A stretch of DNA of 55,777 nt from Chiloscyllium plagiosum. Lineage: Eukaryota. Shown here piece by piece: positions 3,340 to 55,777 of the stretch. The DNA lies in contig NC_057718.1 of NCBI RefSeq assembly GCF_004010195.1, forward strand, positions 85,557,625-85,613,401, in the 5' to 3' direction. Made by a program: the position numbers and the translations under genes. The first letter of the stretch is position 1, and the number at the start of each line of letters is the position of its first letter. A model generated the notes under the pieces. It had not been told where the DNA came from. It ran no database searches and saw only the letters and a list, made by a program, of their open reading frames with translations.

Positions 3340-4207
3340 AGCGAATGCGAGGACTGCAGATGTTGGAGAAGAGAGTCAAGAGGGTGATGCTTGAAAAGCA
3401 TACAGGTGAGGTAGCATCCGAGGAGCAGGAGAATCGACATTTTGGGCAAAAGCTCTTCATCAGGAATGAGGCTGTGAGCCGAGGGGGTAGAGAGATATAT
3501 GGGGGGGGGGGGGGAGACAGGGGAGAAGGTAGGTCGGAGAGGAGGGTGGAGCAGATAGGTGGGAAGGAAGATAGAAGGTTGGAACTGGGATAGGGTGAGG
3601 GGAAGGGAAATTGGGTAACTAGTGAAATTCACATTGATCCCGTCTGGTTGGAGGTCCCAAGGCGAAAGATGAGGCTTTCTTCCTCCAGAGGTCAGGTGGT
3701 GAGGGAGTGGCAATGGAGGAGGCCCAGGACTCGCACGTCCTTGGCGGAATGGGAGGGGGAGTTGAAGGGTTTGGCCATGGGGCGGTGGGGTTGGTTGATA
3801 CGGGTGTCCCTGAGATGTTCTCTGAAGTGCTCTGCAAGTAGGCATCCTGTCCTCCCCAATGTAGAGGAGACCACATCGGGAGCAAGGGACACAGTAACTG
3901 ACATGTGTGGAAGTGCAGGAAAAGCTCTGATGGATGTGCAAGGCTCCTTTGGAGTATTAGACAAAGGTTAGGGGGGAGGTGTGGGCACAAGTTTTGCAAT
4001 TCCTGTACTGGCAGAGTAAGGTGTCAGGAAGGAAGGGTGAGTTGGGGTGGGGGCATGGACCTAACAAGGGAATTGCAGAGGGAATGGTCTTTACAGAAAG
4101 CAGATAGGGGTGGGGAGGGAAATATATCTCTGGTAGTGAGGTCCATTTGTAGGTAGCGGAAATGGTGGAGGATGATTTGATGTACGGAGGTTGGTGGAGT
4201 GGTACCC
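3340..4207 (-). mobile_element. Penelope-like element fragment (GIY-YIG endonuclease + 3' end with decayed hammerhead), flanked by a 14-bp TSD
   Basis: ORF 3321-3941(-) [24 protein letters not shown]. The direct repeat CACCTTCTTCACTA occurs at 3326-3339 and 4208-4221. Confidence 0.88.
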
Positions 4208-4350: not shown

Positions 4351-4449
4351 CCCCTCATTAGTGGGACAATTACAGGTAAAATCACATCAGTTGGACAGTT
4401 ACAGGTAAACTCACCCTCAGTTGGACATTTTCAGGCAACCTCACCACCA
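4351..4449. repeat. Remainder (~3 units) of the 30-bp tandem array
   Basis: ctcattagtgggacaattacaggtaaaatca / catcagttggacagttacaggtaaactca / ccctcagttggacattttcaggcaacctca. Confidence 0.88.
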
Positions 4450-4780
4450 AGGCGTGAGTTAGAGGAAACCCCGCCCCTTTCCGTTTGGCAGTTGCCGCCC
4501 GTCGTGCGCGCGCCCCTCGACGTCCCGTTGTGACTTGCGCCGCGGTGACGTAGTTGACTGCGCGCACCGCCGTTCCCAGTGTGGGCGGCTGGCCTCGGGC
4601 TGCGTTGTCCAGTGGAGCGGAGCCCGGGATCATGAAGGAGGCGGAAGGTCTGCGGCAGCGCCGGCCACAGCAGCCGCAGGTCGTTTCTGATGAATCGCGG
4701 GACGCTGAGACCAAGCATGTGAGGTAGCGGCTGAGTAAGGGATATTGGGGGATGTCGTGGCGGTGGCGGTGGCGGTCATA
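4450..4780 (+). promoter_or_regulatory. APMAP: CpG-island, TATA-less promoter and first exon region of APMAP
   Basis: CpG/GC-rich stretch in an otherwise CpG-depleted window. GC boxes CCCCGCCCC 4469-4477 and GGGCGG 4583-4588, CRE-like TGACGT 4546-4551; the ATG at 4632 has A at -3. Confidence 0.8.
4632..4723 (+). CDS. APMAP: APMAP exon 1 (coding part) [30 protein letters not shown](S)
   Basis: ATG at 4632; donor AG|gtagcg in phase 2, matching exon 2. Confidence 0.92.
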
Positions 4781-7700
4781 TAACAACCCTTTGACAGTAA
4801 CCTTGCTAACTGGGTTCCTTAATGTAATAGACTGGGTTTGCCCCTTCTTTAGAGGTCAATATTAACAGAATGGGAGATAAGATTTAGTCCGCTGTTCCAA
4901 CATTCTACAAGATCATGGCTGATGTGGTTATCTTCCATCCCTCACTTTCTTGTCTGCCCGCCACTGTCTGCATTGAGTAAATTAATAAACGCAGACTTCA
5001 AAGCTTTCTGGGGAGATAATTTGACATAATAACAAGGCCCTGGTAGAAAAGAAATCTGTCTCTAAATGAACACCTTTTATGAAACTGTGATCCTTATATT
5101 TCTCTCTCTCTTTCTCACATAATGATTCCTTGATGAAGGGCTTATGTTTGAAATGTTGATTCTCCTGCTCCTGGGATGCTGCCTGACCTGCTCTGCTTTC
5201 CCAGCACCACACTCTCCACCTGCACAATATATGACATGGTTGTGGTACTTTCCCAACAAAGTCACCTCAGGATTTTGTGTATTTCAAAAGATCACCTGTC
5301 ATATTTTTACAACTCCAGTAGGTAAAGACACCTCCATCCCTGACATGGGAGTGTTTGATGGGGATAATGTAGTTGGAATGTTTACTCGATCTAACCCTAT
5401 GCTGTATCTGTTTAATAGGGACAGTATAGTTTGTTATGTTCTGCTTAGGGTAAATGGAGCTTTGCTATTAGTCTGAAAGAGTGGGAATAGAAATGTGACT
5501 AAATGTATTGAGGGTATGTGGTTTATATGGTTTACAAGGATTTCGCTAAGGCCTTTGACAAACTCCCATGTGGAAGGCTGGTCCCAAAGGTAAGAAGCCA
5601 TGGCATCCAAAGTAAGTTGGCAAACTGGATCCAAATTTGGCTTGGAAATAGGAGGTAAAGGTTGATGTTGGAGGATTGCTTTTGTGATTGGAAGTCTGTG
5701 AGCAGTGGTATACCACAGAGATCACTGCTGGTACCCTTGCTCTTTATATACATGACAACTTGGATGCTCATGCAGAAGGTATGATTGGTAAATTTTCAGA
5801 TGACATGAAAATTGGTGGTGGTGTTGATAGGAGGATTGTCTGAGGCTACAGTCTGATATTGTTCAGCTGGCGAATTGGCTTGTGCAATGACAGATGGAAT
5901 TTAACCTTAATAAGTGTGAGGTGATGCATTTTGGGAGGTCTGATAAAAGAAGAGAATACACAATGAATGGTAGATCCCGAAGGAGTACCAAGGAACAAAA
6001 GTACTTTGGCGTACAAGTCCATGGATCTCTGAAGATGTCAACACAGGTAAACAAGGTGGTGGAGAAAGCATTTGGGATTGACGGGGTGTAGAATATAGTA
6101 AGGAAGTCTTGTTACGATTTTATAAAATATTGGTTAGCTCTGAGATGTAATGCTGTGTGTAGTTCTGGTTGCTACACCATCAGAAGGACGTGATTGCACT
6201 GGAGAGGATGCGGAAGAAATTCACCAGGATATTGACTGGGATTGCTTTCCTTCGAGCAGATGAGGCTGAGGCAGGATCTGATTGAAATATACTGCATATA
6301 GGAAGCATTATCAGGGCAGATCATGAAAATCTTTTCCCCTTGTTGAAGATCAGAGGGCATAAGTTTAAGGTGAGGAGTCAGGGGTTAGATGAGATCAGAG
6401 GAAAATATATTCTCACCCAGAGAATGGTAGAAATATGGAGCACGCTGCCTAAGAAGGTGTTGGAGGCAGGTAATCTCACAGTATTTAAGAAGCATTGGGA
6501 CAAGCACGTAAAGCAACAGGCCTAGTGCAGGTAAATTGGATTAGTAGTTTGGTGTTTGTTAGTTGGGATAGATATGATGGGCCAAAAGGCCTGTATGAAT
6601 GTTCAATTTTCCTTTGTAAGATAAATCCTTCATCCCAGGAGTGAGCTGAGTGAGTCGTCTTTGAGCTGCTTCAAATGCAATTATGTATTTTTTTAAATAA
6701 GGAAATCAGAACTGTACACAGTGTTCTAGATGTGGTTTCATCAAGGCCAAATAGACCTCCTTAGATACATTTCATTCCTCATGCAATAAACGCTAACATT
6801 CTATTAGCTTCCTAATCTCGTCAATTTTTTACATGTTAACTTGTACCAGGATACCCAAGATTCCTTTGTGCCTCTGAGTTCTGAAATTTCTTTACATGCA
6901 AATTGTATACTGTTGTTCATAAGATCACTCCCTCATCCGGTTATCAGTCAAGTAAACATTCTCTGAATTGTTTCTAATCCAATTATACGTACTTTTAAAA
7001 ACCAAAACTGCATGTGAAACTTCAGATGTCGTTTCACCAAAGCTCTGTAGAACTATAGGAAACCATTGCTGTTTTACGTTTCATTCCCTTGAAATAAATG
7101 ACAGTTTGTTTCCATTCCTTATCATTTTCTGTTTGTACATTCTAACATTTTGTGAACACTTATGAACTGGGCACCCAGAATTTTCTGTACTTCAGAGTTC
7201 TGTAATCTCTCCCCATTTAGATAATATGCTGCTTTTCCATAATTCCAGCCAAAATGGACAATTCACATTTTCTGAGATTTTATTTTATCTAAGTATTTTT
7301 CCGATTCATTAAGTCTGCAAGACTCTCTATCCTCCTCATTGACAACTTACTCGCTTCTTTATCTTGGTGTCATTGGCAAATTTAGCTACCATTCATTTGA
7401 TCTCTTCGTCAAAGTCATTGACTGTTTACAATAGATGTCAGTGTCACACCACTGATCCTTGAGGCAGTCTGCTAGTTTTAGCTAGTCATGCTGAGAACAG
7501 CCTATTTATCTCTACTGTTAAAAAATTACACAACATCAGGTTATAGTCCAACAGGTTTATTTGGAAGCACTAGCTTTCAGAGTGCTGCGCCTTCATCGGT
7601 GGTCGTCCTGCCTCCGATGTCCACCGAATCCAACACCGGCTCCTCCACGTCATACCCCTACTGTGTATTCCCTGTTCAGGAATCAATTCTTTATTCATGC

Positions 7701-13700: not shown

Positions 13701-16700
13701 ACTTGAAAGAACTGTGGATGCTGTAAATCAAACAAAAACAGAAGTTGCTGGAAAAGCTCTGGCAGCATCTGTGGAGAGAAATCAGAGTTAACGTTTCAGG
13801 TCCAGTGACCCTTCCTCAGAACTGATGCTAGCTTGGAAAATGTCAGTTTGTATTCAGGTTTATGCATTTTCTTCTGAAATTGTTAGACTCTGTGTTGATA
13901 TACCTTAATGCCTCTAAATCATACATTTTGAAAAAAAAACTTAGGGCAACAGTTTTTTCTGTACAGATGTTTTTTGCCTTACTCTGTAAAGTTTGTACTT
14001 TGCTGTTCTTTGAATATTTTTCTGAAGACTTAATGAAGGTTGAAATATTTGTGGGGCACACATCCTCCTAAAACATTCATTGAGAAGTTACCAAGTTAAT
14101 GTAAAATAACATTCTCTTTCCACAATAAATTCCTGAGTATCTTTCTCTTTTAGTGCATATAGTGGGAAGGTTTTCCGGATAACCTTGACAACCCTCATTG
14201 TGACTCTTCTGGCCCCATTACTGGTGGCAACATTGCTGCTGGAGTCACCAATAAACCCTGAGCCTTTCAGGTAAGTGTTCATTTGCTCTGGATCAAATGT
14301 TAATATTGTAGCCAATAATCTCCAATTGTATATCATCAGCTGGAAGGCGTGGTTGAACAGCATACCAACTCTTGCTGTTTGGACTGGCGTATGGAAATGT
14401 TAGTGGAAGGCTGCTGGTCAATTGATCTATTATCAGAATAATGCAGCTGCTTCTGGAGGGTCGGATCAAGAAGGAATAAAAGAAAAAGTTCCACTTGGAG
14501 GAAAAATCAAGTTGAGTGAGGAAGCAAGGTGCATGAAGGAAAATGTTAAATATGAATTTATAGGATATTAGCTTAAAAATAAGATGAAATTTATCATATA
14601 GAAAAGAAATGGGTGCTAAAATTGCATAATTGTTATTTTGTAAAATAAGGTCAGGGCAAAGATCATCAGTTATGAACTAGCATAAGCAGTAATTGCAAAA
14701 CAGCCTGTTAATATAGGAGTAGATCTGTGGAGTGCAGGTTTACACGAATATAAGACTATAAGACATAGGAGCAGAAATTAGGCCATTCAGCCCATCGAGT
14801 ATGCTCTGCCATTCAATCATGGCTGATAAATTTCTTAACCCCATTCTCCTGCTTTCTTCTGGTAACCCTTGATCCCCTTGCTACCTAAGAACCAATCTAT
14901 CTCAGTTTTAAATATACTCAATGACCTGGCGTCCACAGCCTCTGTGGCAATGAATTCCATAGATTCACCACTCTCTGTCCAAAGACGTTTCTCTTTATTT
15001 CTGTTCTAAAAGGTCTTCACTTTACTGTAAGGCTATGCCCTTGGGTCCTAGTCTCTCTTACTAATGGAAATATCTGGATTAGTGGTGGGAAGAGCACAGC
15101 AGTTCAGGCAGCATCCAAGGAGCTTCGAAATCGACGTTACGGGCAAAAGCCCCAACCTCTACTTTGTCCGTGCCGTTCAGTATTCTGTATGTTTTAATTA
15201 GATCCCTCCCAATCCTTCTAAACTCTATCAAGTATAAATCCGTAGTCCTCAAATGTTCCTCATATGTTAAGCTTTTCATTCCTGGAACTATTCTCGTGAA
15301 TGTCCTCTGAACGTGCTTCAAGGCCAGTATATCCTTCCTGAGATATGGGGTCCAAACTTGCACACAGAATTCCAAACATGGTCTGACCAGAGCAATATAG
15401 AGCCTCAGAAGTACATCCCTGCTTTTACAGTCCTCTCACAATAAATGCCATCATTGCATTTATCTTCCTCACCTCTGACTCAACCTGCTAGCTTACTTCA
15501 GAGAATCCTGGACTAGAACTTCCAATTCTCTTTGTACTTCAGACTTGTGAACTTTCTCCCCATTTAGAAAATAGTCCATGCCTCTCTTCCTACTAAAGTG
15601 CATGACCTCACACTCTCGCACATTGTACTCCATCTGCACATTCTTTGCCCACCCTCCTAACCTGTCCAAATCCTTCTGCAGCGTCTTCCTCAATGCTGCC
15701 TGTCCCTTTACCTATCTTTGTAAAAGATTGGAATCATATTTGTTAAACCTGCTTGCAAAATACAATTGACTTAGGGAATCAGTTGAAACATAGTGAAGGT
15801 TATTTTGCTTTTTTTTATTAAAAACATACAATTTATCATGAGCAGAGTAAAAGCCAATTGTTAATACTTCTATGCGTTTACTGATTGTTTTATAACACAG
15901 TGAGTAGCCTAAAATAAAGAAAGATGGCTGATATAAGCAGGTGGCTTGGCTGCAACTCCCATAGTATTGAACTACCTTTCAATTTTAATACAGCAAATGG
16001 TCAAGGGGCCATTGCAATGCCATGCAACATCTGTTGACTAAGATCAATGTCGCTAACTCCAGGCTATAAAAGAAATGCTTCTTGCCTAAAAATCAGCCAT
16101 GAACTTATCTTTGAGCACTCTGCAAATAAAAACCTCAAGTTGTTATGGACCAGACCAAATACCCTCAAAATATTCAGAAGATAGGCTAGACCCTAACTTT
16201 TTCGTATATTAGAGGTGAATGTAAGCTGTTGAGTTCCAAATGCAACTCGATTGATCAAGCGATTGGCTTTAAAGTAAAACACACTTTATTCATCCCCTGT
16301 AGTTAAAATACAGCAACAGAAAGTAGGAATTGGCATAACTTAACTCTTTTGAAAGACTTAACAGAATAGTAGATTATTTTACTAATAAACAGTAACAGTC
16401 TCAATATAGTAACATCCCACTAACACAGCCTTGGCAAAAGGCAAATTCAGAAAATAGTTGTCTGACATGCAACTCCAGCAGCCCAGGAGGAATAATATCC
16501 AGAGAAAACTTGGGGGGCAGTTTAAAAAAACTACAACTCCTAGTTCTATGAGAGCTTGATCGCACTTGTTCAGGCTGCTCCAGTTGTTCCAAGTTTTAAA
16601 AAAAAAAATCTTAAGGCCTCAGAAGCTGTTTACTCTAGTTTGTTTGGTACTGCATCTCTGCTTTGAAACCTTTCTTCAAAAAATCCAGGACAAAATAACC

Positions 16701-19700: not shown

Positions 19701-22700
19701 CAAATCAGATCCTCTATCTAAACCTGTCGCCTGTTTTCTAAGGATCTGTATCCCTTTGCTGCCTGCCCATTTCATGTATATGTCTAGGTACATCTTAAAT
19801 GACGCTATCGTGCCCGCCTCTGCCACCTACGCTAGCAATTCATTCCAGACACCCACCACCCTAAGTGTAAAGAACTTTCCGTGCATATCTCCCTTAAACT
19901 TCTCCCCTCTCACCTTGAACTCGTGGCCCCTAATAATTGAGTCCTCCACTCTGAGGGGAAAAAGCTTCTTGCTATCCATGCTGTCTACACCTCTCATGAT
20001 TTTGTAGAGCTCAATCAGGTTCCCCCTAAACCTCTCTCTTTCTAATGAAAATAATCCTAATCCACTCAACCTCTCTTCATAGCTAGAAGCCTCCATACCA
20101 GGAAGCATCCTGGTTAACCTTTTTATCCTCTCTCCAAAGTATCCACATTCTTTTGGTAATGTGGCGACCAGAACTGTACACAGTATTCCAAATGTGGTCG
20201 AACCAAAGCCCTATACAACTATCACATGACCTGACAACTCTTGTACTCAATACCCCATCTGATGAAGAAAAACATGCCTTATGCCTTCTTAATCACTGTA
20301 TCGACTTGCATTGCCACCTTCAGAGTACAATAGACCTGTACACCTAGATCTCTCTGTACATCAGCTTTCCCCAAGGCTTTTCCATTTGCTGTATAGTTTG
20401 CTCTTGAAATAGATTTTCCAAAATGCATTACCTCGCATTTGCCCGGATTGAACTTCACCTGCCATTTCTCTACCCAACCCTCCAATCTATCTATGTTCTG
20501 TTGCATTCTCTGGCAGTCCCCTTCACTATCTACTACTCCACCAATCTTTAGTGACACCTGCAAATTTGCCAGTAACACCACCTATACGTTCCTCCAGATC
20601 ATTTATGTATACCACAAACAATAGTGGTTCCAGCACGGATCCCTTTGGAACACCACTAGTCACAGTTCTCCATTTGGAGAAACTCCCTTCCACTACTACT
20701 CTCTGTCTCCTGTTGCCCAGCCAGTTCTCTATCCATCTAGCTAGTACACCTTGGACCCGGTACGACTTCATTTCTCCATCAGCTGACCAAGGGGAACCTT
20801 ATCAAATGCCTTACTGAAGTCCATGTATATGACATCTACTGCCCTTCTCTCATCAATCAACTTTGTCACTTCCTCAAAGAATTCTATTAAGTTGGTAAGA
20901 CATGACCTTCCCTCAATATCCTCTTCAGCAGCTTCCCTACCACTAATGTTGGACTCATCAGTCTGTAATTACCTGGATTATCCCTACTACCCTTCTTAAA
21001 CAAGGGGATAACATTAGCAGGTGGTGTATAGTTTGGAGGTGAATCTGCAGATGGTGGTGTTCATATAAAATCATACAGCATAGAAACAGACCCTTTGGCC
21101 TACCATCTCTTTGCCAACCAACAAATACAAAACTACTCTAATCCCATAGCCAGTATGCCTGGTATTTTAAGTGCTCATCCAGGTGCTGCTTAAATGTTCT
21201 GCCATCATCTACTTCCAGTATCCTCTCAGGCCTCATGTTTCACATTTCTATTATTGTCTGGGTGAAAAAATTATTTTTCAGATCTTTTCTAAATCACTTG
21301 CTTCTCAACTTAAACTTATGCCCTCTAGTATTAGTCATGTCTGCCATAAGAAAGAGAATCTCATGAGACACTCTGTGTATATCTCTCTTATTTTTGTAAA
21401 CTTCAGTCAGGAACCATCCCCCTCCTGAGCCGCCTCTGCTCCAAGAAAAACAAATTCAGCCTATCCAGTCTATTCTCCTGACACAGACTTTTCATCCCAG
21501 TCAACATCCTGGTGAATTTCCTCTGTGCCCTCTCCAGTGCAGTCATGTAGTTTTGATTGCACTGGAGAGGGTACAAGGCGATGGATCTTGGGGGATACAT
21601 TTGGAAAATGTTTTTGAGGGAGTCTTTGTGAATTACTGCAATGCCTCATGCAGATGGTACACACTCATGCCACTGTGTATTGATGATGAAAGGAGTGAAT
21701 ATTTAAGGTGGTGATGGTGAACCAAACAAGGGGTGTCAACCCACTGAAGTTACAATGCAGGACTACTTGCATGCCAAATAGCAGAAGCTGCATGCAAGTA
21801 GACAGAGCTAAGTGATTGCACAGTGTATGAATTCAATGTATGGTGATTGACAATAAAGCAACTTGCTGGAGTAGAAGTTTCTGCAACAATGGGAGAGTCC
21901 AATACATAAGTGCAAAGAACAAGGCTAATGTAATTGCATTTACTTTTAGCCAGAAATGTCAACTGTATGATCAATCTCAAGCTCTTCCTGAGGTCCCCAT
22001 CATCACAGATGCCAGTTTTCCACCAATTTAATTCTGTCAGTTTGATATCAAAAAGGACCTGAAGGTACTGGATACTGTAAAGGCTATGAGTGCTAAATAT
22101 TTTGACCATACTACTGAAGAGTTATGCTCCAGAAATAGCTGCACTATGGGGAATGTAGATAATAACCCAGGTATATGCTGTTTACAAAAAAGCAGTACAA
22201 ATATAACCTAAGCAATTACTGTCCCATTACAGGAAGTCCCTGATTAACAAGTGTCCAATTTACAAATACTCAAATTTATGAATGTTGTCCTATACTGGGG
22301 AGTAGGTTTCAAGACTAGACATACAAACATTCCTGTACTTACGAATGGCTGCTTTACATGGCCCTGTATTGTGTTCCAACGATTGTACAAACTGACTTGC
22401 AAATGGAATCCAGGACAGAACCCATTTGTGGCCTGGGGAGTGTATATAGTCTATTGTTCATTTTCAGGCAAATGATGGAATTGGCCATTGGCAGTGGTAT
22501 TAGATAGCACTTGCTCAGTCATAGTCTTAGTTTGAGTTCCACTAGAGCCAATTGACTCCCACGCTCATTATAGCTTTGGACCAAACAAAAGAGTTAAACT
22601 CTAATTTTGGTCATGATTCGGAGATGCCGGTGTTGGACTGGGTGTACAAAGTTAAAAATCACACAACACCAGGTTATAGTCCAACAAGTTTAATTGGAAG

Positions 22701-25700
22701 CACACTAGCTTTCGGAGCGACGCTCACAATCACCTTATGAAGGAGCGTCGCTCCGAAAGCTAGTGTGCTTCCAATTAAACCTGTTGGACTATAACCTGGT
22801 GTTGTGTGATTTCTAATTTTGGTGACAGCAGCTGCCCATGACATTAGCGCAGTATTTGACTGGGTGAGACTACAGGGAGTCCTAAATGAGGTTCATGGGA
22901 ATTTGAGGAAACCACTTTACTGACTGGGATCATGCCTAGCACAAGGAATTAGAAGTCAACTAACTCAGCCTTAGTACTGTCTGTGGCCCAATCCATCTCA
23001 GTTGCTTCATCATTGTCATTCCCTTCATCATAAGATCAGAAGTGGGATTGTTCGCTGATGATTTTAAAATATTCAGCAGCTATCATAACTCCTCCGACAT
23101 TGACGGAGTCTGTGTCCACGTGTAGCAAGAGTAACACAATATCCAGGCTTAGGCTGATTAGTGGTAAGTGACATTTTTGCCACTCAACTGCTAGCCATTT
23201 ACCATTTCTAATAAATAAGGTTCTAACCACCTTGCTTTGATCAACAGAATTACAATCACTGAATGCACCAGCCATATAAATGCTGTGGCTGTCAGAAAAT
23301 GACAGAGTCTGGGAATTCTGTAGTGAGTAACTCCCTTCCAAAGCTTGTCCACTGTGTACAAGGCACAAGTTAGGCATGTGATGGGATACACTTCACTTGC
23401 CTGGATTTGCACAGCTCCAGTCACATTCAAGAAGCTCAGCATGATCCAGGACAAAGCAGAACACTTGATTGTCACCCTATTTGTCATGTTAAATATTATC
23501 TTATCAAGAGTGCTTCGGGAGCATCTGCCAAACCCAGAGCCATACTGCTCAGAAGGATGAAGGAGCACCACTTAGGAGTTCCTTTTCATAGTGCTGTGAC
23601 ATGGAACTTTATTATAGTTACCTCAATGTGGCCTAGTCAAAAGCCTAAACTTCTTCCCTGACAGTACTGTTGGTGTACCTCCAATACAAAGACGACAGTA
23701 GTTCAAGAAGGTAGCTCAGTATCACATTCTCAAAGGCAATCAGGGCTTGGTAATAAATGCTGGTCAAGTGAATGACACCTGCATCTCCTGAAGGAGTAGA
23801 TAAATTGGCTTGACTTTCCTTTTTTTATTAATGTTCCAGTACAGACTTTACTATTATGATTCATGTTCCTTGACATTTTTTTCAAGCAGCAAGCCCCTTG
23901 AAGTGGTAATGTAATAATGACCAGGTAATATTCTTTCATTATGTGGGTTGAGGAATGAATGTTGACCAGGATGCTATGAAGAACCCTTCTGTCTTTGTGA
24001 GTGTTTTGGGATCTTTTATATTCACATGAGGGGCAGATGTGGCCTTGGTTTAATATCTCACCCATAAGGCAGCATCTCAGTGCATCACGTTCTCAGTACA
24101 GTACAGAAATTATTTTGCACATGAATCTTCTGTCGTCATGACAAGATGCACAAAAGGAAGGAAATGGTCTCTTGTGCTGAAACACTATCTTAAAACCTTT
24201 CAACTTTATTAGCAATCTTTCTTTTAATTGTGTTTGTTATATCAGGGAATTATGATAGCCCTTTGTATGACATTAGTAATTAATGTTGGTTTCGGGTCAG
24301 TTTTGTGATTGTGGATCGAACAGCAACTAAATTAGCATTAACTATACTCATTTGGAGTTGAATCTTTTTAACTGATGCTGAGGAAGGGAATATTCATCCT
24401 ACTCAGATGAATTGGCAGCATTCTAGCCTCTGAGGCAAAAGACTCCAATCCCAATCTAAGGACTTGAGCACAAATCCAGGCTGACATTTCAGTGCAGTCC
24501 TGATTAGATAAAGTTTTTTCAAAGAAGTGTAAGAGATTTTTTCCTTGTAGTCTTGGGCTTGATTTATTATTCATCCCTCAACCATTGTTACAAAAAGCAC
24601 ATTATCATGGCTCTATACCATTGTTTATTGCTTTATCTTGCATAAATTAGCAACTGTCTTTTCCTACAACAGTGGTTTTGCATTATTGTCAGCAAAGAAC
24701 ATTAGGACATCTTGAGGTCATGAACCTCAAATCCATTTTACTGCTCCTCGGATGCTGCCTGAACTGCTGGCTCTTCCAGCACCACTAATCCAGAACCTCA
24801 AATCCAAGTCTTTTCTTTTTAGTTCTGATTAAACTTGCAGCTGAGGATATGAGTGACCGGATCTCTAGTTTTGCTTTTTTCTAGGAAGGTGCTGAGTGAA
24901 GCTTGTTTTGTAACTGAATTCTATATGTGGGATCTCTGCAGAGGTCATATTCACTGGTACGGCTGATGGACAGATTCTGAAAATAAGTGATGGACAAATA
25001 CATACCCTGGCAAGAATAGGCAAACTTCCTTGTGGTGAGTCATGGACAAAAATGACTGTTTTCTTTGATACGGTTTCGGAGTAGTTTTTACATCAAGCTG
25101 TATTTAGTTAAGTGGTCCTGCAGTAATAGTCACTTTTTCAAATGGCTTTATTTTCTGTTCTCTTTAGCTTTAACTTAAGTGTTAATTTAATAACAAACTG
25201 GCTGCTTTGTAAAAGTTGGCTTGATGGTGAGAATAAAATTAATTTAAAGTTCATGTCTAAAGTTAAGAAAAATAAAATATCTTTAATGCTACCCCTGATT
25301 TCACTTTGGCTGCACAGCAACAGCACAGCAGGGCAGAGGTTGAGCCTTTGCTCATGGTGGTTTAGAGGAACGGGAGCTGATCATACTAAAGTATAGGATA
25401 CTAAGGGGACTTGACAGGGTACATGTAGGAAGGACCTTTCACTTTGTGGTCAAGTATGAACTAGGGGCCACAGTTTGAAGCTTAGGAGTCTCATTAAGAC
25501 AGATCAGGAGAAATCTTTACTTTGAGATCCATTCTCTGGAATTCTCCTCTTCACAATGCAGTGGATGCTAAGTCATTGAATAGATTCAAGCCCGAGTAAG
25601 TTGGATTTTTGAATGATGGAGTTGAGGGGTTTGGGACTGAACAGGACTTGAAGCCACAATCAGATCAGCTGTGATCCTATCAAAATGGATCTTAAGGCTT

Positions 25701-40700: not shown

Positions 40701-43700
40701 ACTCCTGCCACCAAACGCCTTAGTTTATTCATCCAGGTCTCGACAATGTGTCGGCAATTACGTTTTCTCGTCCTGCCACGTGCATATTTTTCAAATTTAA
40801 TGGCTGCAATAACAAGCTCCATCTAAACAGTCTGGCATTTTTTGTCCTTAAATTTCTCAAAACCCTTAATGGGTTATGGCACCATATTGGCAACATAAAT
40901 GTTGAAATGTTGTAACACCAACACCAAGCTCAAAGTCGTCTCAATTGTCGAATATTTCTGGTCATCTTCTGGATATGGAAGGATCCTTTGGGGTCTTGGT
41001 CTTAGGACATATGTTCTAAGACCCCAAAGGATTCTTCCATATCCCACAGAAATTTACCTGTACTTCCACATACATCATCTACTGCATTCGTTACACCCGA
41101 TGTGGTCTCCTCTACATTGGGGAGACAGGACGCCAACTTGCAGATTGTTTCAGAGAACATCTCCAGGACACCCGCACTGGACTGTGATGAGCGGGCAAAC
41201 GTGGATGCAGGCCTTACAATGGCAGGGGAAGGTGCTGGGAGGGGACGGTGGGTTAGTGGGGGACATGGACCTGACAAGGGAGTCACGGAGAGAATGGTCT
41301 CTCTGAAATGCAGATAGGGTCGGGGAGGGGAATATATCTATGGAGTGGGGTCTGTTTGTAGGTAATGGAAATGGCAGAGGACGATGCGGTGTATCTGGAG
41401 GTTGGTGGGGTGGAAGGTGAGGACCCAGGTGAGGTGTGGGATGTGGAGGAGATGTGCTGGAGGGCATCATTCACCATGTGGGAGGGGAAATTGCGGTCTT
41501 TGAAGGAGGAGGCCATCTGGAATGTTCTGTGGTGGAATTGGTCTTCCTGGGAACAGATGTGGTGGAGGAATTGGGAATAAGGGATAGTGTTTTTACAGGA
41601 GGCAGGGTGGAGGAGGTGTAGTCCAGGTAGCTGTGAGAGTCCGTGGGTTTGTAGTAGATATCAGTGTTGAGTCGGTTGCCGGAAACGGAAGTGGAAATGG
41701 AGAGGTCCAGGAAGGGGGGAGAAGTGCCTGAGATGCTCCAGGTGAACTTAAGATCGGGGTGGAAAGTGTTTGTGAAGTTGATGAACTGTTCAACCTCCTC
41801 GTGGGAGTCATTGATGTAGCGGAGGAAATGAAAGGGAATGGCGCCGGTGTAGCTACAGAAGATGGACTGTTCCATTTACCCGACGAAGAGGCAGGCGTAG
41901 CTGGGGCCCATGCAGGTGTCCATGGCTATCCCTTTAGTCTGGAGGATTGGAAGGAGAAGTTGTTGAGGGTGAGGACCAGTTCAGCCAGTCGAATGAGTGT
42001 GTTGGTGGAAGGCTACTGGTTGGGTGGGTGTGAGAGGAAGAAACAGATGGCTTGGAGGCCTTCGTCATGGCGTATGGATATGTACAGGGACTAGATGTCC
42101 AAGGTGAAGATAAGGCATTGGGGACTGGCAAATTGAAAGTCAAGGAGGAGGTGGAGGTGGTGTTCCAAACATAGGTGGGGAGTTCCTGGACTGAGGGGGA
42201 CAGGACGCTGTCAGAAGTATGCAGTGATAAGTTTGGTGGGGCAGGAGTAGACTGTGACAATGGGTCGACTAGGGAAGTCAGGTTTGTGGATTTTGGGTAG
42301 TTGGTAGAACTCGGTGGTGCAGGGTTCCCAGACTAAGGTTGGATGCTGTGAATGGGAGGTCCCCAGAGGTGATGATGTCGCGAATAGTCTGAGAGATGAT
42401 GGTTTGGTGATGGAGGGGGTGAGATCGTGGTCGAGGGGGCATGAGGAGGATGTATCTGAATTGGTGCCTGGCTTCAGTAGTATAGAGGACAATGTGCCAA
42501 ACTACCACTGTGCCCTCCCTATCTGCAGGTTTGATGGTGAGGTTGGAGTTGGAGCGGAGGGCTGCGCATTGTGAGAGTGAGAGGTTGGAGTGCGTGAGGA
42601 GGGTGAACAGGTTGAGGCGGTCTATGTCCCAGCGGCAGCTGGAGATGAAGAGATCAAGGGCATATAACAGACCAGCCCAGGCTGTCCAGGTGGATGGGGT
42701 GTGCTGTAGGTGGGAGAAGGGGTCCTCCGAGGGTGGGTGGGAGTCCTGGTGGGAAAAGTAAACCCGGAGGCGGTGGAAGAAATGTTCAATGTTGCAAAAT
42801 GTGTCGAATTCATTGATCCAGGAGCATAGGGGGTTTTCCAATGACCTGATGTATTTAACATGTCTGGCAAAATTCAACTGCATCCTTGTGCAGTCCAGGC
42901 TAGTAAAAATGTTCTTATATTTTAGCTTGCGTTTTTATTTCTCCTAAATGACCTCCTACTGGTAGTTCAAGCGCTATCCACAACACCACCTTTCTGTAAT
43001 CCTCTGGGAATATGACTTGATGAACTTCTGCCTGTTTTTCATCTGCCTGAATATATCATGGTCTCCATTTCCTCATTAAGACATAATTTTTAAGATAGTA
43101 GCACTCAGATTCTTCAGGTTCTTCTTCCGTGTATGCTTTTTGATACCATTGTTTCAGTCTGTTGTCTTTCTGTTATAACTCAGTTAATTTCTCTAAACTA
43201 AAACTATCCACTTTGTCCTCCACCAGCAGCTGTTTTGTCTCAGCCATTTATTCAAATGTGGTCTCCGATAATTCTATTTCAACTTCCTTCTCTGTATTCT
43301 TTGGTTTCTCCTCTTGTTTCATTTGGTGACTTTGTGAACTTGTTACCACACAGTCAAGTAAAATCTCAGCACATGCTTCCTGTAATACCTCAGTTGCCTG
43401 ATTTTCACACTGGCTTTTTGACCACAGCAGGCAGTACACCTCCTGTGACCCAGCTATATATATCATTAGCAAGGACAACTTGTATTCCTGGAGCCAAGAG
43501 TCCTTCCAGTACTCTTACCCTGACTTTTCCACTTTCCACTGGACAGTCTTAACCTCACTTTATATAACTGAGCACTTCTTGTCTCACTGTGAATTCCACG
43601 TATTGGCACTTTTTCTGGGATTAGTCCTTCTGAGTTACATATCTCCTCATCTCCCAACATCAATGATTGACATGAACCCGTATCTCTTAATACTATAACT

Positions 43701-45724
43701 TCTTTACCTGCTGCTCCTTGCGAAGGTAAGGTTTAATTGCATTGGCACGTAAATGGTTTAAGATGATCTGGCACTTCCTCCTTAACCATCCTCTAATCAG
43801 GTTGGATATTCTGCTGCAGCTTTTTAGCCTCCTCGGTGCCTTCCTTTACCACTTCAACAAAATTTACTGGCTTATCCTGTTTTCCTACATCTGGCTTCCC
43901 ACTTTTTTTTTCTAACCCACCAACACTATGATTTCTTGTGGCCTACTTTGTTGCATAGAAAACACTGGAGTTTTTAAACTTCTGTTTCCCCTGCATGGGT
44001 TTCCTTTTTACCCTGTGGTTAGCTATCTTTACTATCTTCACTGAGACCTACCTTTCCCCTACCACTTGAGGATTTCTCTTTTTCCCCAATTTCTATCCCT
44101 CACTGATCGAAATTGATGTTGAAAGCCAAACTTTGATTTATGAACCAACTCATCGTCAGCCATTTCAGTAGCTAATCTTGCCATTGTAATTCTGTTCTTT
44201 CACATGACTTCCACATGAACTATTTCAGGAAATGAATTTTTGAACTCCTTCAAAATTCAGAGGAATCTCAATTATCTGAGTACCGATTATCCGAAGGAGA
44301 TCTTGAGGTCCCGATGGGAACATTATATCAAAGACGTGTTTCCAACAGTGATCGTGTCTTTTGTTTATAGTGATTAAACAGGCATCGTCTCCAAATGATT
44401 GACTGACTGACTGCCCGCCCTCTCTCTCTCTCCACACTTTCTCTCAAGTTCTACACAGCCATGTACCCTAAACCCCCCTTCCCACATAACCTCTCCAACA
44501 TTGTTCTGTACAGGGCAAAGGTGGAACCTGTCTAAAAGTTGCAGTAAATAGTTGTGTGTGTGGCTGTGGCTGCGTGTGTGTGCGCTATTTGGAGACTTAC
44601 CCAATAAAGGTAACTGCAGCAGTCTTGTTGGAGTCCAGTCCAGCTGCCCCAGGAGAGGGGGTGGGAGGCAGTGTTGGACAGGGTTTGGGCGGTGTTGCAC
44701 AAGTTTGGGGTAGTGTTGGGGGGGGGGTGTAGTTTTGGGGGTGGGGAGAGGTGTTGCCCGGGGTTGGGGGCGGGGTCTCCACGCTGTGTGCTGCTGCTAG
44801 TCTCCTGAACAGGGAGCAGACATTTTAAAAACTCCGAGCTCCAGAGGAAAGGCATTTAATCGATTAACCGAATAATCGATTATCCGAACGAAATAGTGCC
44901 TGCCCATCAAGTTTGGATGATTGAGGTTCCCCTGTAATCGTCTCTCTAAGAGTGTCATATGTTTGATCTATTTTTAATGCCTTTATGCACCTATCAAAAT
45001 TGCTTTGTTTGATCCTTTTAAAGGAGAAAGTGAGGGCTGCAGATGCTGGAGATCAGAGCTGAAAATGTGTTGCTGGAAAAGCGCAGCAGGTCAGGCAGCA
45101 TCCAAGGAACAGGAGAATCGACGTTTCGGGCATAAAGCCCTTCTTCAGGAAACTCAATGTATGTTTGATCAGGGTCGCTCCTTAGATTCCTGAAACATTG
45201 CCTGTAGGCTTCTGGCACAAGCTCATGTGCACTTAAGATGGCTTTCTTCACCTCCTCGTACGCCCCAGATACCTCCTCTGATAGTGATGTTCTATCTACT
45301 AGCTTTGTTTGGATCAACAATATCTACATGGTCACTGACCAATTCAAATAAAAACAAAAATTGGTACTATATTTCTGTTTTTTTTTGTTCTGTCCGATGT
45401 TAATGTATTCACAGGTCACTTTTGCAGATCAAAAGGAGTGACTGTTATCTTCCACTTTTTCTCTTGTAAATGCCTAACAGTCCTTACTGTGTTTGTGATT
45501 TGTACCCTTTTTAGCTGTTCAGTCAGGAGATGACAATGAAGTTTGTACCCAAGTATGGCCTTGTATTGGAGCTAAATGAGGATGGATCCATCAACAGGAG
45601 CTTCCATGATCCCCATGGAGTGGTGGTGCCTGCAGTTAGTGAGGCAGATGAGCATGATGGTTACCTGTACCTTGGTTCCTATTATTCCCCTTTCCTCTGC
45701 CGGCTGGATCTCAACAAGGTTTAA
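4632..45724 (+). CDS. APMAP: Adipocyte plasma membrane-associated protein (type II membrane protein, strictosidine synthase-like/SMP-30 six-bladed beta-propeller); 9 coding exons, 1248 nt, 415 aa
   Basis: Exons of 92+117+116+93+117+175+135+193+210 nt splice in frame through GT-AG introns. The translation matches vertebrate APMAP throughout ([59 protein letters not shown]). Confidence 0.97.
5121..5222 (+). mobile_element. Short PLE 3'-end fragment with decayed hammerhead motif
   Basis: ttccttgatgaagggcttatgtttgaaatgttgattctcctgctcctgggatgctgcctgacctgct; same family as 3345-3470 and 45021-45152. Confidence 0.75.
5480..6597 (+). mobile_element. CR1-type LINE RT/3' fragment, decayed
   Basis: [18 protein letters not shown] and [16 protein letters not shown] segments, with stops and frameshifts. 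Confidence 0.85.
7518..7603 (-). mobile_element. Short PLE-end fragment (GAAAGCTA hammerhead family), decayed
   Basis: Closely similar to the arm of the 22612-22811 cassette (acacaacatcaggttatagtccaacaggtttatttggaagcactagctttc). Confidence 0.75.
10341..13620 (-). mobile_element. Long, heavily decayed CR1-type LINE (3' tail through RT and endonuclease)
   Basis: Tail aacatagaaaatatagaaatatagaa at the left end. The endonuclease-like segment '[19 protein letters not shown]' is in ORF 12534-12791(-). Confidence 0.75.
13700..13850 (-). mobile_element. PLE 3'-end fragment carrying a hammerhead motif
   Basis: Same family as 37381-37507 and 51052-51202 (gttaactctgatttctctccacagatgctgcc...cttttccagcaacttctgtttttg). 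Confidence 0.75.
13781..13826 (-). ncRNA. Minimal type I hammerhead ribozyme motif (core intact)
   Basis: RNA: AUCAGUU-CUGAGGA-A-GGGUC-ACUG-GACCU-GAAA-CG-UU^AACUCUGAU. Stem I AGUU/AACU, stem II 5 bp, palindromic ACGU stem III. Confidence 0.75.
14154..14270 (+). CDS. APMAP: APMAP exon 2, transmembrane helix: [38 protein letters not shown]
   Basis: ctttctcttttag| acceptor, |gtaagt donor, 117 nt. Confidence 0.96.
14748..15720 (-). mobile_element. CR1-type LINE 3' fragment, interrupted at 15073-15152 by an ~80-bp PLE-end piece
   Basis: Tail ataagactataagacatagg. ORFs 15079-15375(-) and 15493-15693(-) contain [13 protein letters not shown] and [13 protein letters not shown]. Confidence 0.85.
16141..16723. 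mobile_element. Solo LTR (583 bp), same family as the LTR at 39972-40551
   Basis: TGTTAT...ATCACA ends; 4-bp flanks AAGT/AAGC; shares blocks such as tgttatggaccag, cctagaccc, ccttggcaaaagg.aaattca and ggacaaaataacc. Confidence 0.8.
17929..18044 (+). CDS. APMAP: APMAP exon 3 [38 protein letters not shown]
   Basis: ttgtctgcag| acceptor, |gtatgg donor, 116 nt. Confidence 0.96.
18529..18838 (+). mobile_element. HE1-like tRNA-derived V-SINE, young full-length copy
   Basis: A box tggcacagtgg, B box ggttcaattccc, V-domain ctgtgtggagtttgcacattctccccgtgtctgcgtgggtttcctccgggtgctcc, tail cactgtaagtaatctaat; CpGs retained. Confidence 0.9.
18846..19241 (+). mobile_element. PLE 3' fragment (endonuclease C-terminus + hammerhead) with 9-bp TSD
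   Basis: Translation [36 protein letters not shown] at 18837-18845 and 19242-19250. Confidence 0.8.
19137..19182 (+). ncRNA. Minimal type I hammerhead ribozyme motif, sense strand of APMAP intron 3
   Basis: UUCUCA-CUGACGA-U-GUUACC-UAGAAU-GGUGAC-GAAA-UG-UC^UGAAAA; predicted cut after 19176. Confidence 0.75.
19593..21020 (-). mobile_element. CR1-type LINE RT/3' fragment
   Basis: ORFs 19827-20108, 20279-20581 and 20526-20771 (-): [50 protein letters not shown]. Confidence 0.9.
21066..21555 (-). mobile_element. CR1-type LINE 3' fragment
   Basis: ORF 21403-21600(-) [13 protein letters not shown]...[16 protein letters not shown]. Confidence 0.75.
21700..23790 (+). mobile_element. Old CR1/L2-group LINE of a second family, decayed, with nested insertions
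   Basis: RT C-terminal remnant [36 protein letters not shown]; 3' tail ggcaatcagggcttggtaataaatgctgg. Confidence 0.65.
22612..22811. mobile_element. 200-bp palindromic PLE-end cassette with 12-bp TSD
   Basis: Inverted arms 22656-22725 and 22743-22812 (69/70 complementary); TCTAATTTTGGT at 22600-22611 and 22812-22823. Confidence 0.88.
23880..24110 (-). mobile_element. Deu-domain SINE remnant (similar pieces at ~24410-24720 +, ~38800-39150 -, ~48750-48900 +)
   Basis: gcagatgtggccttggtttaatatctcacccataaggcagcatctc resembles the reverse complement of the Deu core. Confidence 0.55.
24736..24792 (+). mobile_element. 57-bp PLE-end micro-insertion with 14-bp TSD
   Basis: GAACCTCAAATCCA at 24722-24735 and 24793-24806; the insert matches the reverse complement of ~55653-55711. 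Confidence 0.85.
24942..25034 (+). CDS. APMAP: APMAP exon 4 (E)[30 protein letters not shown]
   Basis: tctctgcag| acceptor, |gtgagt donor, 93 nt. Confidence 0.96.
25869..25985 (+). CDS. APMAP: APMAP exon 5 (G)[38 protein letters not shown]
   Basis: gaatccag| acceptor, |gtagag donor, 117 nt. Confidence 0.96.
26200..27090 (+). mobile_element. CR1-type LINE 3' fragment
   Basis: NVDKCEVI and [14 protein letters not shown] remnants; tail tttctatgattctat. Confidence 0.8.
27200..27375 (+). mobile_element. tRNA-head SINE 5' part (same family at ~33485-33785 - and ~47905-48270 +)
   Basis: gtggtaatatcactggactcataatccaga...gggtttgaatcccac...ggtgaaatttgaattc is shared between the copies. Confidence 0.65.
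27619..28799 (+). mobile_element. Internally deleted pogo/Tigger-like DNA transposon with 15-bp perfect terminal inverted repeats
   Basis: TAGTAAATTCACAAC 27619-27633 / GTTGTGAATTTACTA 28785-28799. Transposase-like remnants [13 protein letters not shown] (cf. PPNTTSKLQPMDQ) and AMFTKAWK...TNCFHHTG. Confidence 0.7.
29012..29186 (+). CDS. APMAP: APMAP exon 6 (G)[57 protein letters not shown]
   Basis: aatttcag| acceptor, |gtgagt donor, 175 nt. Confidence 0.96.
29490..30455. mobile_element. Decayed LTR-like sequence related to the solo LTR at 54900-55609
   Basis: Loosely shared blocks (taattaaaac..ataatctg..aa; gattgg..gtcaa..at; taattggct..attc). Ends and TSD are not resolved. Confidence 0.4.
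31318..31532 (-). mobile_element. tRNA-derived SINE (third family)
   Basis: The minus strand starts gggtagttcagttggctgga...agattcaattccc (A/B boxes), followed by ctgaggtgtggtgaccctcaggttaaaccacc. Confidence 0.6.
32031..32165 (+). CDS. APMAP: APMAP exon 7 (R)[44 protein letters not shown]
   Basis: ttattgcag| acceptor, |gtgaga donor, 135 nt. Confidence 0.96.
37381..37507 (+). mobile_element. PLE-end fragment with decayed hammerhead, ~120 bp upstream of exon 8
   Basis: cattccgaagaagggtcactgaacctgaaactttaacactgatttgtttccacagatgctgc; same family as 13700-13850. Confidence 0.7.
37627..37819 (+). CDS. APMAP: APMAP exon 8 (R)[64 protein letters not shown]
   Basis: ccttgccag| acceptor, |gtagga donor, 193 nt; lies inside ORF 37598-37924. 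Confidence 0.96.
39161..39655 (-). mobile_element. CR1-type LINE 3' fragment
   Basis: Tail tagaacataagaaataggaacagaagta followed by CR1 3' UTR and C-terminal sequence. Confidence 0.75.
40961..42850 (-). mobile_element. Penelope-like element (RT + start of GIY-YIG) with an inverted GIY-YIG segment (41021-41180, +)
   Basis: [24 protein letters not shown] and [26 protein letters not shown] on the minus strand; [26 protein letters not shown] on the plus strand. Confidence 0.88.
44258..44934. mobile_element. Non-autonomous Tigger/pogo-like DNA transposon (MITE-like, 677 bp) inserted in the Gypsy gag
   Basis: Imperfect TIRs CAGAGGAATCTCAATTATCTGA / TTGGATGATTGAGGTTCCCCTG followed by TA; subterminal CGATTATCCGAA repeats; gag sequence resumes on both sides. 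Confidence 0.75.
45021..45152 (-). mobile_element. Young PLE-end fragment with core-intact hammerhead (45115-45152), inserted in the Gypsy gag
   Basis: RNA: UUC-CUGAAGA-A-GGGC-UUUAU-GCCC-GAAA-CG-UC^GAUUC; CpGs retained. Confidence 0.8.
45515..45724 (+). CDS. APMAP: APMAP exon 9 (coding part) [69 protein letters not shown]
   Basis: ccctttttag| acceptor; TAA at 45722-45724; ORF 45530-45724. Confidence 0.96.
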   Translation: MFSQEMTMKFVPKYGLVLELNEDGSINRSFHDPHGVVVPAVSEADEHDGYLYLGSYYSPFLCRLDLNKV

Positions 45725-50371: not shown

Positions 50372-51363
50372 TTGTTTCAAAAATTCTCAATTGTTTTAAA
50401 TAGAAGATCCCCTTATAAGCTATGTTCCTTGGTCTGGTTTTCTCTCACGACGGACAATATCCTTTCAGCAGCCATCCTATCGATTTTCCTCAGGATCTCA
50501 TTCTTCTAAACTGTAATGGATATAGGCCCAACCTTCCCTTGCCTACCTGAATATAACCTTTGACTTCCACTTAAAAAAATATTCAATAATCCTGCGTCCC
50601 GCTGCTTTTTGAGGAAGATCATTCCGGAAAATAAAATCCTTAGGGAAAAAAAAACTCATCTCCAACTTAAATAGGAGATCCCTTCCTTTTAAACTGTGTT
50701 CTCGATTTTAAGCTTTTTCATAAGGGAAGCATCCTTCCAGTACACACTCTGTCATGAGCCTCAGGATGATGTGCTTCCCCTCATTCTTCCAAACTATAAC
50801 AGATATAAGCAAACTGATGTCTGTAAACCTGGCTGCACACTTTCATTCAGGGGAAAAAAAAGACCTGGAGTGGGGTTAGGTCATTTGGCCCATCAAACAT
50901 GCTCCACTTGCCTGCCTACCCTTGATACTCTTTGAATCCCTAGAGAATCAAAAAATATGTATCTCTATCTTAAAGACATTCAGTGACTCTGCCTACACTC
51001 TGGAGAAGAGAGTTCCGCAATATTCCATGAGAAAGAAAACAAAATTCTCAAAAAAAAACTGCAGATGCTGGAAATTAGAAACGAAACCAAAAGAGAAATT
51101 GCTGGAAAAACCTCAGCAGGTCTGGCAGCATCTGTGGAGAGAAATCAGTTAATGTTTCAGGTCCAGTGCACCTTCAGCAATTTTGGTTTTGATTTTGTTT
51201 CAAAAATTCTCAATTGTTTTAAATAGAAGATCCCCCTTATAAGCTATGTTCCTTGGTCTGGTTTTCTCTCACGACGGACAATATCCTTTCAGCAGCCATC
51301 CTATCGATTTTCCTCAGGATCTCATTCTTCTAAACTGTAATGGATATAGGCCCAACCTTCCCT
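50372..51363 (+). repeat. Near-perfect 168/169-bp direct repeat pair (50372-50539 and 51195-51363)
   Basis: The copies are identical except for one extra C in a C-run, and both lie within decayed CR1 3' ends. Confidence 0.92.
51052..51202 (-). mobile_element. PLE-end fragment with a short inverted tail and 11-bp TSD
   Basis: AAAATTCTCAA at 51041-51051 and 51203-51213; hammerhead truncated within stem II. Confidence 0.7.
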
Positions 51364-55650: not shown

Positions 55651-55777
55651 TCTGGATTAGTGGTGCTGGAAGAGCACAGCAGTTCAGGCAGCATCCAAGG
55701 TCCAGCAAAATCGATGTTTCGGGCAAAAGCCCTTCATCAGGAATAAAGGCAGTGAGCCTGGAGTGTGGAGAGATAAG
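55651..55777 (-). mobile_element. PLE 3' end with hammerhead motif (55708-55744), runs off the right edge
   Basis: RNA: AUUC-CUGAUGA-A-GGGC-UUUU-GCCC-GAAA-CA-UC^GAUUUUGCUG...CCACUAAUCCAGA. Confidence 0.8.

Follow-up and report, generated by a model that had tools for sequence, protein, structure and literature searches.

How a short piece of a retroelement comes to begin next to the very bond that a ribozyme is predicted to cut is the question raised by an insertion of 57 bp in the genome of Chiloscyllium plagiosum. It lies in a window of 55,777 nucleotides, by which we mean the whole stretch of DNA that was analysed (RefSeq assembly GCF_004010195.1, contig NC_057718.1, positions 85,557,625 to 85,613,401 of the forward strand). 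Positions in the parent repeat family are counted from the predicted hammerhead cut, GAAACGUC^GAUU (GUC^G), with the first base 3' of the cut, a G, as +1. The reading that we consider probable is that a Penelope-like element (PLE) left the insert as a 5'-truncated stub and that elsewhere chains of the same stub restart at the predicted cut through run-off and jump-back.

The insertion and its boundaries

The insertion comprises three features:

24722..24735, plus strand: left copy of the target-site duplication (TSD), 14 bp; its last four bases, TCCA, match family -2 to +2, TCGA, at three of four positions
24736..24792, plus strand: insert, 57 bp; pLTR +3 to +60 with a 1-base deletion, from the Neptune-like PLE subfamily ending ACTAATCCAGA; without the ribozyme core
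24793..24806, plus strand: right copy of the TSD, 14 bp; its first three bases, GAA, equal family +61 to +63, the short 3' end

The perfect 14-bp duplication described in the initial annotation was confirmed, since the window contains GAACCTCAAATCCA in exactly two places, spaced by 71 bases and with no extension of the match on either side. The limits of the insert were set by alignment to an intact genomic copy of the family. Its start had been placed 1-2 nt past the cut, and it does fall within 1-2 bases of +1, but the exact base is blurred by microhomology: the final A of the left 14-mer is also family +2, and the match of TCCA to TCGA spreads the 5' boundary over -2 to +3. The 3' boundary is blurred in the same manner by the GAA of the right 14-mer, family positions at which reverse transcription (RT) likely started.

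Contigs of four runs, three from organism A in three studies and one from organism B, reach the insert from either flank, which rules out an assembly artefact. The organism B flanks show about 10 differences in 310 bases. An empty site in a related organism had been proposed as a check; no joint skipping the insert was seen among the listed contigs of the four runs, and the insert is shared with the organism B contigs. The insertion is thus real and older than the split of organisms A and B. In itself, the single 57-bp insertion is ordinary, a 5'-truncated pLTR stub of a Neptune-like Penelope element.

The parent family and its predicted hammerhead

The 42-base pLTR core has 11,488 exact genomic copies, and an 18-base anchor common to the sister subfamilies has 132,046. 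Reverse-transcriptase and C-terminal GIY-YIG motifs occur in frames that precede pLTR copies, in separate pieces rather than in one whole ORF; Pfam matched them to RVT_1 (E 0.005) and GIY-YIG (E 0.0004-0.009), both below the curated cut-off, and gave no match for the N-terminal RT piece beyond the window. A CX4CxxC linker and two cysteines inside GIY-YIG are present in the frames L065 and L003 (e.g. C-HRRN-CKTC). According to the available text of PMC8557442, a CX2-5CxxC linker marks Neptune-like PLEs and its absence marks Penelope/Poseidon. The family also shows the pLTR, the 37-bp optional tail at one end, the inverted 5' copies and the TSDs that are hallmarks of EN+ PLEs. The parent therefore appears to be an EN+ PLE, Neptune-like, the clade name being given by motif only.

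The minimal type I hammerhead criteria were taken from the accessible part of PMC4209133. The majority sequences of subfamilies A (62 arms), B (7) and C (24) contain CUGANGA, GAAA, G10.1-C11.1, palindromic 15.2-16.2 and an NUH triplet; subfamily D was represented by only 2 arms in this comparison. These majorities vary at hammerhead position 7, in loop II and 3' of the cut, while the catalytic boxes are constant. Helix I, AUUC/GAUU, pairs as C-G, U-A, a U-U mismatch and A-U, that is, 2 bp and a mismatch against the 4-5 bp of the criterion. The minimum-energy fold retains helix II, with a z-score of -0.05, and an Rfam search of the window returned no hammerhead. Six loci (L121, L193, L197, L206, L221 and L239) carry a variant in which three bases are inserted 3' of the cut (GATTTTGCTGAAGCTCC); it is apparently a recombinant of two haplotypes.

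The window holds further copies of the family:

55651..55777, minus strand: 3' pLTR of a longer copy of the same subfamily, with the short-site end; crosses the cut; RT-coding sequence lies past the window after an N gap
55709..55744, minus strand: minimal hammerhead motif in that copy (CUGAUGA at 55740-55734, helix II GGGC-UUUU-GCCC, GAAA)
15073..15152, minus strand: copy of the same subfamily, -20 to +62, with the short-site end; crosses the cut (15133/15132)
45026..45151, minus strand: sister-subfamily copy with a CUGAAGA core; reaches from about -31, across the cut, to the long tail
5125..5210, plus strand: older sister-subfamily copy, from about -32; crosses the cut
3343..3497, minus strand: older sister-subfamily copy with tail; crosses the cut

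The predicted cut in the 55651 copy lies between 55713 and 55712 and has AUC where the family has GUC, a substitution that reads as CpG decay; across the assembly gap, this copy continues into a PLE reverse-transcriptase frame. No TSD is evident by eye at 15073..15152. The shared 3' end reported for the copies at 15073, 24792 and 55651 holds, all three stopping at CCAGA. The first and last of these read through the cut (to -20 and beyond -65, respectively), and the 3' end is all that they have in common with the insert.

Other repeats were noted in the window. A decayed PLE RT fragment at 42141-42628, minus strand, has 46-67% identity in pieces to the frame L080. Another repeat family accounts for a near-perfect 79-bp inverted repeat at 22647-22821, whose right arm resembles a hammerhead (TTATGA-A-GGAGC-GTC-GCTCC-GAAA); it probably derives from a different PLE as a fold-back stub, and the Rfam microRNA matches there were under threshold. 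A degenerate tandem repeat with a 30-bp unit occupies 1906-2684 and 4355-4468, and an exact 131-bp duplicate (50409-50539 and 51233-51363, 824 bp apart) reflects either a recent duplication or an assembly overlap.

Fixed 3' ends and scattered 5' ends

The ends of family copies were read in an unbiased set of 101 arms, made up of the first 100 matches to the core on contig 1 together with neighbours. The 3' ends are bimodal, 46 being short (+59 to +69) and 55 long (+85 to +99, with 42 at +98/+99), and inverted partners combine one long and one short end in 31 of 31 arm observations, where readable. In the Anolis PLE, as the accessible text of Frangieh et al. (PMC11167929) describes it, reverse transcription begins at two internal sites bounding the tail. 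The two fixed 3' ends match these internal starts, so no 60-nt RNA is needed to account for them, and by this analogy the CCAGA 3' end is most likely an RT start rather than an RNA end.

The 5' end was readable in 63 of the 101 arms and censored in 38. On the 3' side of the cut, three arms begin at +11 to +18, 13 at +4 to +10, a bin inflated by lenient scoring, and none at +1 to +3. Upstream, the counts are 1 (-1 to -10), 7 (-11 to -20), 13 (-21 to -28), 10 (-29 to -35) and 16 (beyond). The scarcity of ends just 5' of the cut (1) and their frequency just 3' of it (13, with the lenient scoring) could be due to trimmed run-off cDNA. An earlier impression that many copies start near the cut was rejected, because the query had included the duplication and was hence biased.

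Genome-wide, about 9% of all arms have their 5' end within -4 to +10 (4,498 filtered matches). Among 76 such arms, +1 to +3 holds 12 against 13.2 expected; the 76 come from 91 of 100 listed places examined, 15 having been dropped as false truncations (the 3-base-insertion subfamily, T-run growth and small indels). Exact +1 starts are in excess, at 268 of 1,046 truncated arms intact from +1 (purine at -1) against 156 expected, a share of 0.256 against the 0.139 simulated for uniform ends, while no rise is seen in the +2 class (359, with 407 expected). A recurrent inversion joint in which GA provides the microhomology makes up part of this 1.7-fold excess at +1 (by eye, about 5 of 27). Of the first 100 places in the +1 class, the analysis read all 27 that have a purine at -1 and 46 of the 73 that have a pyrimidine there; for the +2 class, 70 of 100 listed places were read, with L267 taken separately, and the solo and inversion classes were assigned partly by eye.

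Stand-alone copies reach 1.3 times the uniform expectation at +2 (103 estimated, interval 66-146, against 79; 20 of 70 read) and 1.4 times at +1 (60 estimated, interval 23-113, against 42; 6 of 27 read). Neither excess is significant, both intervals including a ratio of 1. Close sisters of the insert, stand-alone, short-ended and TSD-flanked, make up 8 of the 70 +2-class loci. The sharp 5' peak at the cleavage site that had been anticipated is therefore absent, both in bulk (0 of 101 at +1 to +3) and in stand-alone copies. What survives of the proposed enrichment at the cut concerns a minority of events, namely the 268 against 156 exact +1 starts and the restart and U6 junctions described below, and does not extend to most stubs.

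Head-to-tail chains restart at the predicted cut

Some stubs are arranged head to tail, so that the junction records where copying restarted; two places among the truncated arms intact from +1 were the first to show the short end joined straight to +1. Restarts following the short site in subfamily A lie at the cut in 10 of 20 loci, nine at exactly +1 and one at +2 with two filler bases. Within the search window of -5 to +10, all 11 matches, corresponding to 10 loci (L272 and L273 being one), fall at the cut. The junctions read CCAGA/G, CCAGAA/G or CCAGAAT/G, apart from one with a GA overlap and the +2 case. Control windows gave six loci over -41 to -19 and four over +10 to +24, all scattered (-38/-36, -37, -34, -32, -31, -21, +13, +17, +24 and +24). 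The survey covered 52 positions (-41 to -19 and -5 to +24), and the binomial probability of at least 9 of 20 loci at one pre-specified position of the 52 is about 5e-11.

The other subfamilies vary in precision. All 3 subfamily B loci, with 5 junctions, restart at +1, and a wider subfamily B pattern yielded no further loci; in subfamily D, 1 of 2 matches restarts at +1. Subfamily C is looser, with 12 loci at +1 to +8 (1 of 12 at +1, the rest at +3 to +8), mostly through short homology, and none of the 12 restarts 5' of the cut. Among five matches with long-site restarts, one is blunt at +1, three use TTGATTT homology across the cut and one lies at +4. The match at L373 is probably fortuitous, and L374 may represent a pair of neighbouring insertions.

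The +1 junctions occur in five haplotypes, as defined by +5 to +9, and in five junction forms, mostly blunt, which indicates that they arose separately rather than from one inherited duplication. The arrays have 2-4 units (L264, L268, L269, L369 and L370), often with the long tail only on the unit made first. L269 is a trimer of a 62-nt unit. Two +1 junctions are present in each of L369 and L370, where the long tail is restricted to the first-made unit. In both L267 and L372, a first unit that reads across the cut is followed by one that ends at it. Neither the insert nor the +1 arrays contain CUGANGA and GAAA. Repeated restarts are also found at +17 (L325/L326) and -21 (L322); these chains point to re-initiation that does not depend on the cut, so that resetting appears to be a general habit of the RT and +1 its commonest boundary.

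Several chains are notable for their form. L325/L326 (G000:C7, ~76.663 Mb) contains seven or more units of ~45 bp, almost all of which restart at +16/+17, as well as an inverted long-tailed arm. L306/L307 and L303 are trimers of a ~102-bp unit in which TTGATTT homology joins post-tail sequence to the cut region. The subfamily C chains L311, L314 and L318 consist of 4-6 short units with slightly varying microhomology junctions.

U6 sequence joined at the same base

When U6 3' ends were searched upstream of the anchor, 4 of 4 matches, in 3 loci and three haplotypes, were joined at +1. At L381 (G000:C31:9505844-9508875), where U6 was confirmed by Rfam, both inverted arms carry an identical U6/+1 joint; L379 and L380 have only short U6 3' pieces, which Rfam left uncalled. 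In the U6/LINE-1 chimera model, as presented in the available text of PMC6789731, RtcB joins U6 to retroelement RNA, and the acceptor needs a 5'-OH. The same joint in both L381 arms would be expected if U6 had been ligated to a 5'-OH end before copying. One L381 arm also has a head-to-tail U6 repeat, which suggests the same resetting on a U6 template.

A proposed model for cut-bounded copying

The restart and U6 junctions support the view that, in a minority of events, the template really does end at the predicted cut. It is likely that the hammerhead cuts in the germ line, and likely that the RT runs off the cut end and re-initiates repeatedly. On balance, we lean towards a model in which the hammerhead sets the 5' boundary, the telomerase-related RT resets repeatedly into 62-nt chains, and some 57-62-bp inserts are single rounds of this process.

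In such a scheme, most element RNA would be left uncut and give rise to the common stubs, while a minority would self-cleave through the hammerhead, perhaps with assistance from protein as in Anolis, leaving a 5'-OH end at +1. The endonuclease would nick the target 14 bp apart, and RT primed at the genomic nick would start at +98 or +62, priming at +62/63 being aided by GAA microhomology. On arrival at +1, the RT could join the target, join the opposite arm or reset to +62; joining at the 5' side would proceed by microhomology, and re-initiation after run-off would take place on the same or a partner RNA. For the Anolis element, the accessible text of PMC11167929 reports uncut RNA as the dominant substrate in vitro, cleavage as dispensable and no RNA-seq ends at the cut. 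No pile-up of read starts or ends was found here in 1,897 raw reads of one poly(A) single-cell run, which is a weak test; a second run yielded no reads.

Competing explanations

For the present insert, RT would have started at the shorter internal site (+62) and stopped about 60 bases on, and the question is what stopped it. The insertion may possibly be a single round of the cut-and-reset cycle, copied from ribozyme-cut RNA, with a start at +62, run-off at +1 and the loss of 1-2 bases on joining. The boundary within 1-2 bases of +1, the existence of cut-bounded templates documented by the restart and U6 junctions, and the eight sister loci in the +2 class are consistent with this origin. However, stand-alone starts exceed the uniform expectation only by the factors of 1.3 and 1.4 given above, the junction also matches two bases 5' of the cut (TCCA/TCGA), and most sisters overlap their target at ATT(T), a match that AT-rich targets favour at any cDNA length. 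We regard this origin as a tenable but minority reading, and ordinary truncation with TCCA/TCGA microhomology as probably the correct one for the present insertion.

The chains themselves could have been formed by RNA ligation before RT, a 3' end near +62 being joined, in a linear or circular molecule, to the 5'-OH at +1. The junctions are identical within L269, L369 and L370, and the U6/+1 joint common to both L381 arms fits the RtcB-first model (PMC6789731, available text). Against this, a circle of +1 to +62 has no source for the long tail on the first unit (L265, L266, L271, L274 and L369-L371), and a small RNA circle was rejected as the template for arrays with such a tail; moreover, the two L268 junctions differ by one base, the donor-side spread (CCA to CCAGAAT) equals that of ordinary short 3' ends, and ligation would still require a cut at +1. 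We consider RNA ligation unlikely as the source of the chains, and run-off and resetting at the cut end remain preferred.

Another origin for a 5' boundary at this base would be a minor capped transcription start at +1, or at +2 if a cap G was copied, whose agreement with the predicted cut is accidental. TC/GATTT at the cut presumably resembles the initiator consensus, and a G precedes 16 of 27 exact +1 starts by eye, yet nearly all blunt restarts lack an extra G. In addition, ends at -29 to -35 are common (10 of 101), yet the zone from -41 to -29 has only five scattered restarts, against 10 at the rare +1 end; resetting per end is thus far more frequent at +1 than in the -29 to -35 zone, which argues against a second capped start. 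U6 ligation, for its part, requires a 5'-OH (PMC6789731, available text), and a capped start is accordingly very unlikely.

The initial annotation had proposed that the free RNA of about 60 nt, from the cut to CCAGA, is itself mobile, a ribozyme-defined micro-retroelement. The 62-nt unit from +1 to +62 is indeed copied in tandem at L269, L369 and L370, and a few hundred stand-alone inserts of 57-62 bp are likely, by extrapolation from the 8 of 70 examined to the class of 359. The proposal is nevertheless largely refuted and highly improbable, as the short 3' end belongs to the family as a whole (46 short, 55 long) and recurs identically on copies of all 5' lengths, one having RT sequence upstream, and there is no bulk 5' peak, none of the 101 arms starting at +1 to +3. 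The long tail that is often present on the first unit of restart chains implies a template extended past +62. The unit itself lacks both promoter and ribozyme, and the Anolis template requires sequence well 3' of the start sites (PMC11167929, accessible text). Finally, no diagnostic short-copy subfamily exists, the five haplotypes being common to long copies.

Least probable of all are DNA-level duplications or assembly errors as the source of the chains, since, although L272/L273 and L306/L307 are each one locus matched twice and the long-site trimers use a 7-base homology, most +1 junctions are blunt and without homology, they lie on many contigs and haplotypes in three subfamilies, and point changes separate the units of one array.

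Relation to known systems and significance

The pLTR stubs, tails, inversions and minimal hammerheads are already known. EN+ PLE insertions (PMC8557442, PMC3846280, PMC11167929) are described with a pLTR, an optional 30-40-bp tail, an inverted 5' copy and a TSD, and the present family shares with them two 3' ends 37 bp apart, strong 5' truncation, inverted arms, microhomology joints and a variable TSD, besides RT and C-terminal GIY-YIG with the CX4CxxC linker of Neptune-like elements. In contrast, the accessible parts of these papers describe no cut-restart chains, and a literature search, with most subscription journals outside its reach, found no description of cut-bounded restart chains.

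With the minimal type I hammerhead (PMC4209133, accessible part), the motif shares the CUGANGA/GAAA boxes, the extra base before helix II, G10.1-C11.1, palindromic 15.2-16.2 and GUC, and differs from it in a helix II of 4 bp and a very weak helix I. The in vivo role of PLE minimal hammerheads is described as unknown, and their activity there as 'still a mystery', in the available text of PMC7761336, whereas in the present family the predicted bond is marked by junctions in the DNA. Non-LTR retrozymes (bioRxiv 10.64898/2026.07.22.740005; PMC7229834; available text) are likewise PLE-pLTR-derived tandem arrays that depend on PLE enzymes, but they have a hammerhead in each unit and are thought to spread by circles. 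The 62-nt units begin at the cut, lack the ribozyme, number 2-4 per array and are dead ends, and neither the insert nor the +1 arrays have the complete hammerhead per tandem unit that characterizes a retrozyme. As in U6/LINE-1 chimeras made via RtcB (PMC6789731, available text), the U6 3' end is joined to a retroelement RNA that is then retrotransposed, although the acceptor here is one fixed base, the predicted hammerhead product.

In telomerase repeat addition and R2 template jumping, the enzyme copies to a 5' template boundary, resets and adds a head-to-tail repeat. Most junctions here are without realignment sequence, the events are rare and the unit is 62 nt, so that, by analogy, the chains would work like repeat addition but are not telomerase. 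According to the accessible text of PMC8557442, telomerase RT has the RTs of PLEs as its sister group.

DNA junctions that coincide to the base with the predicted bond, as they do here in several subfamilies, provide a cheap genomic read-out of cleavage in any PLE-bearing genome. If the proposed mechanism is true, repeated resetting to an internal start would represent repeat-addition-like behaviour in the retroelement class nearest to telomerase, and such resetting may be a way in which tandem pLTR arrays are seeded.
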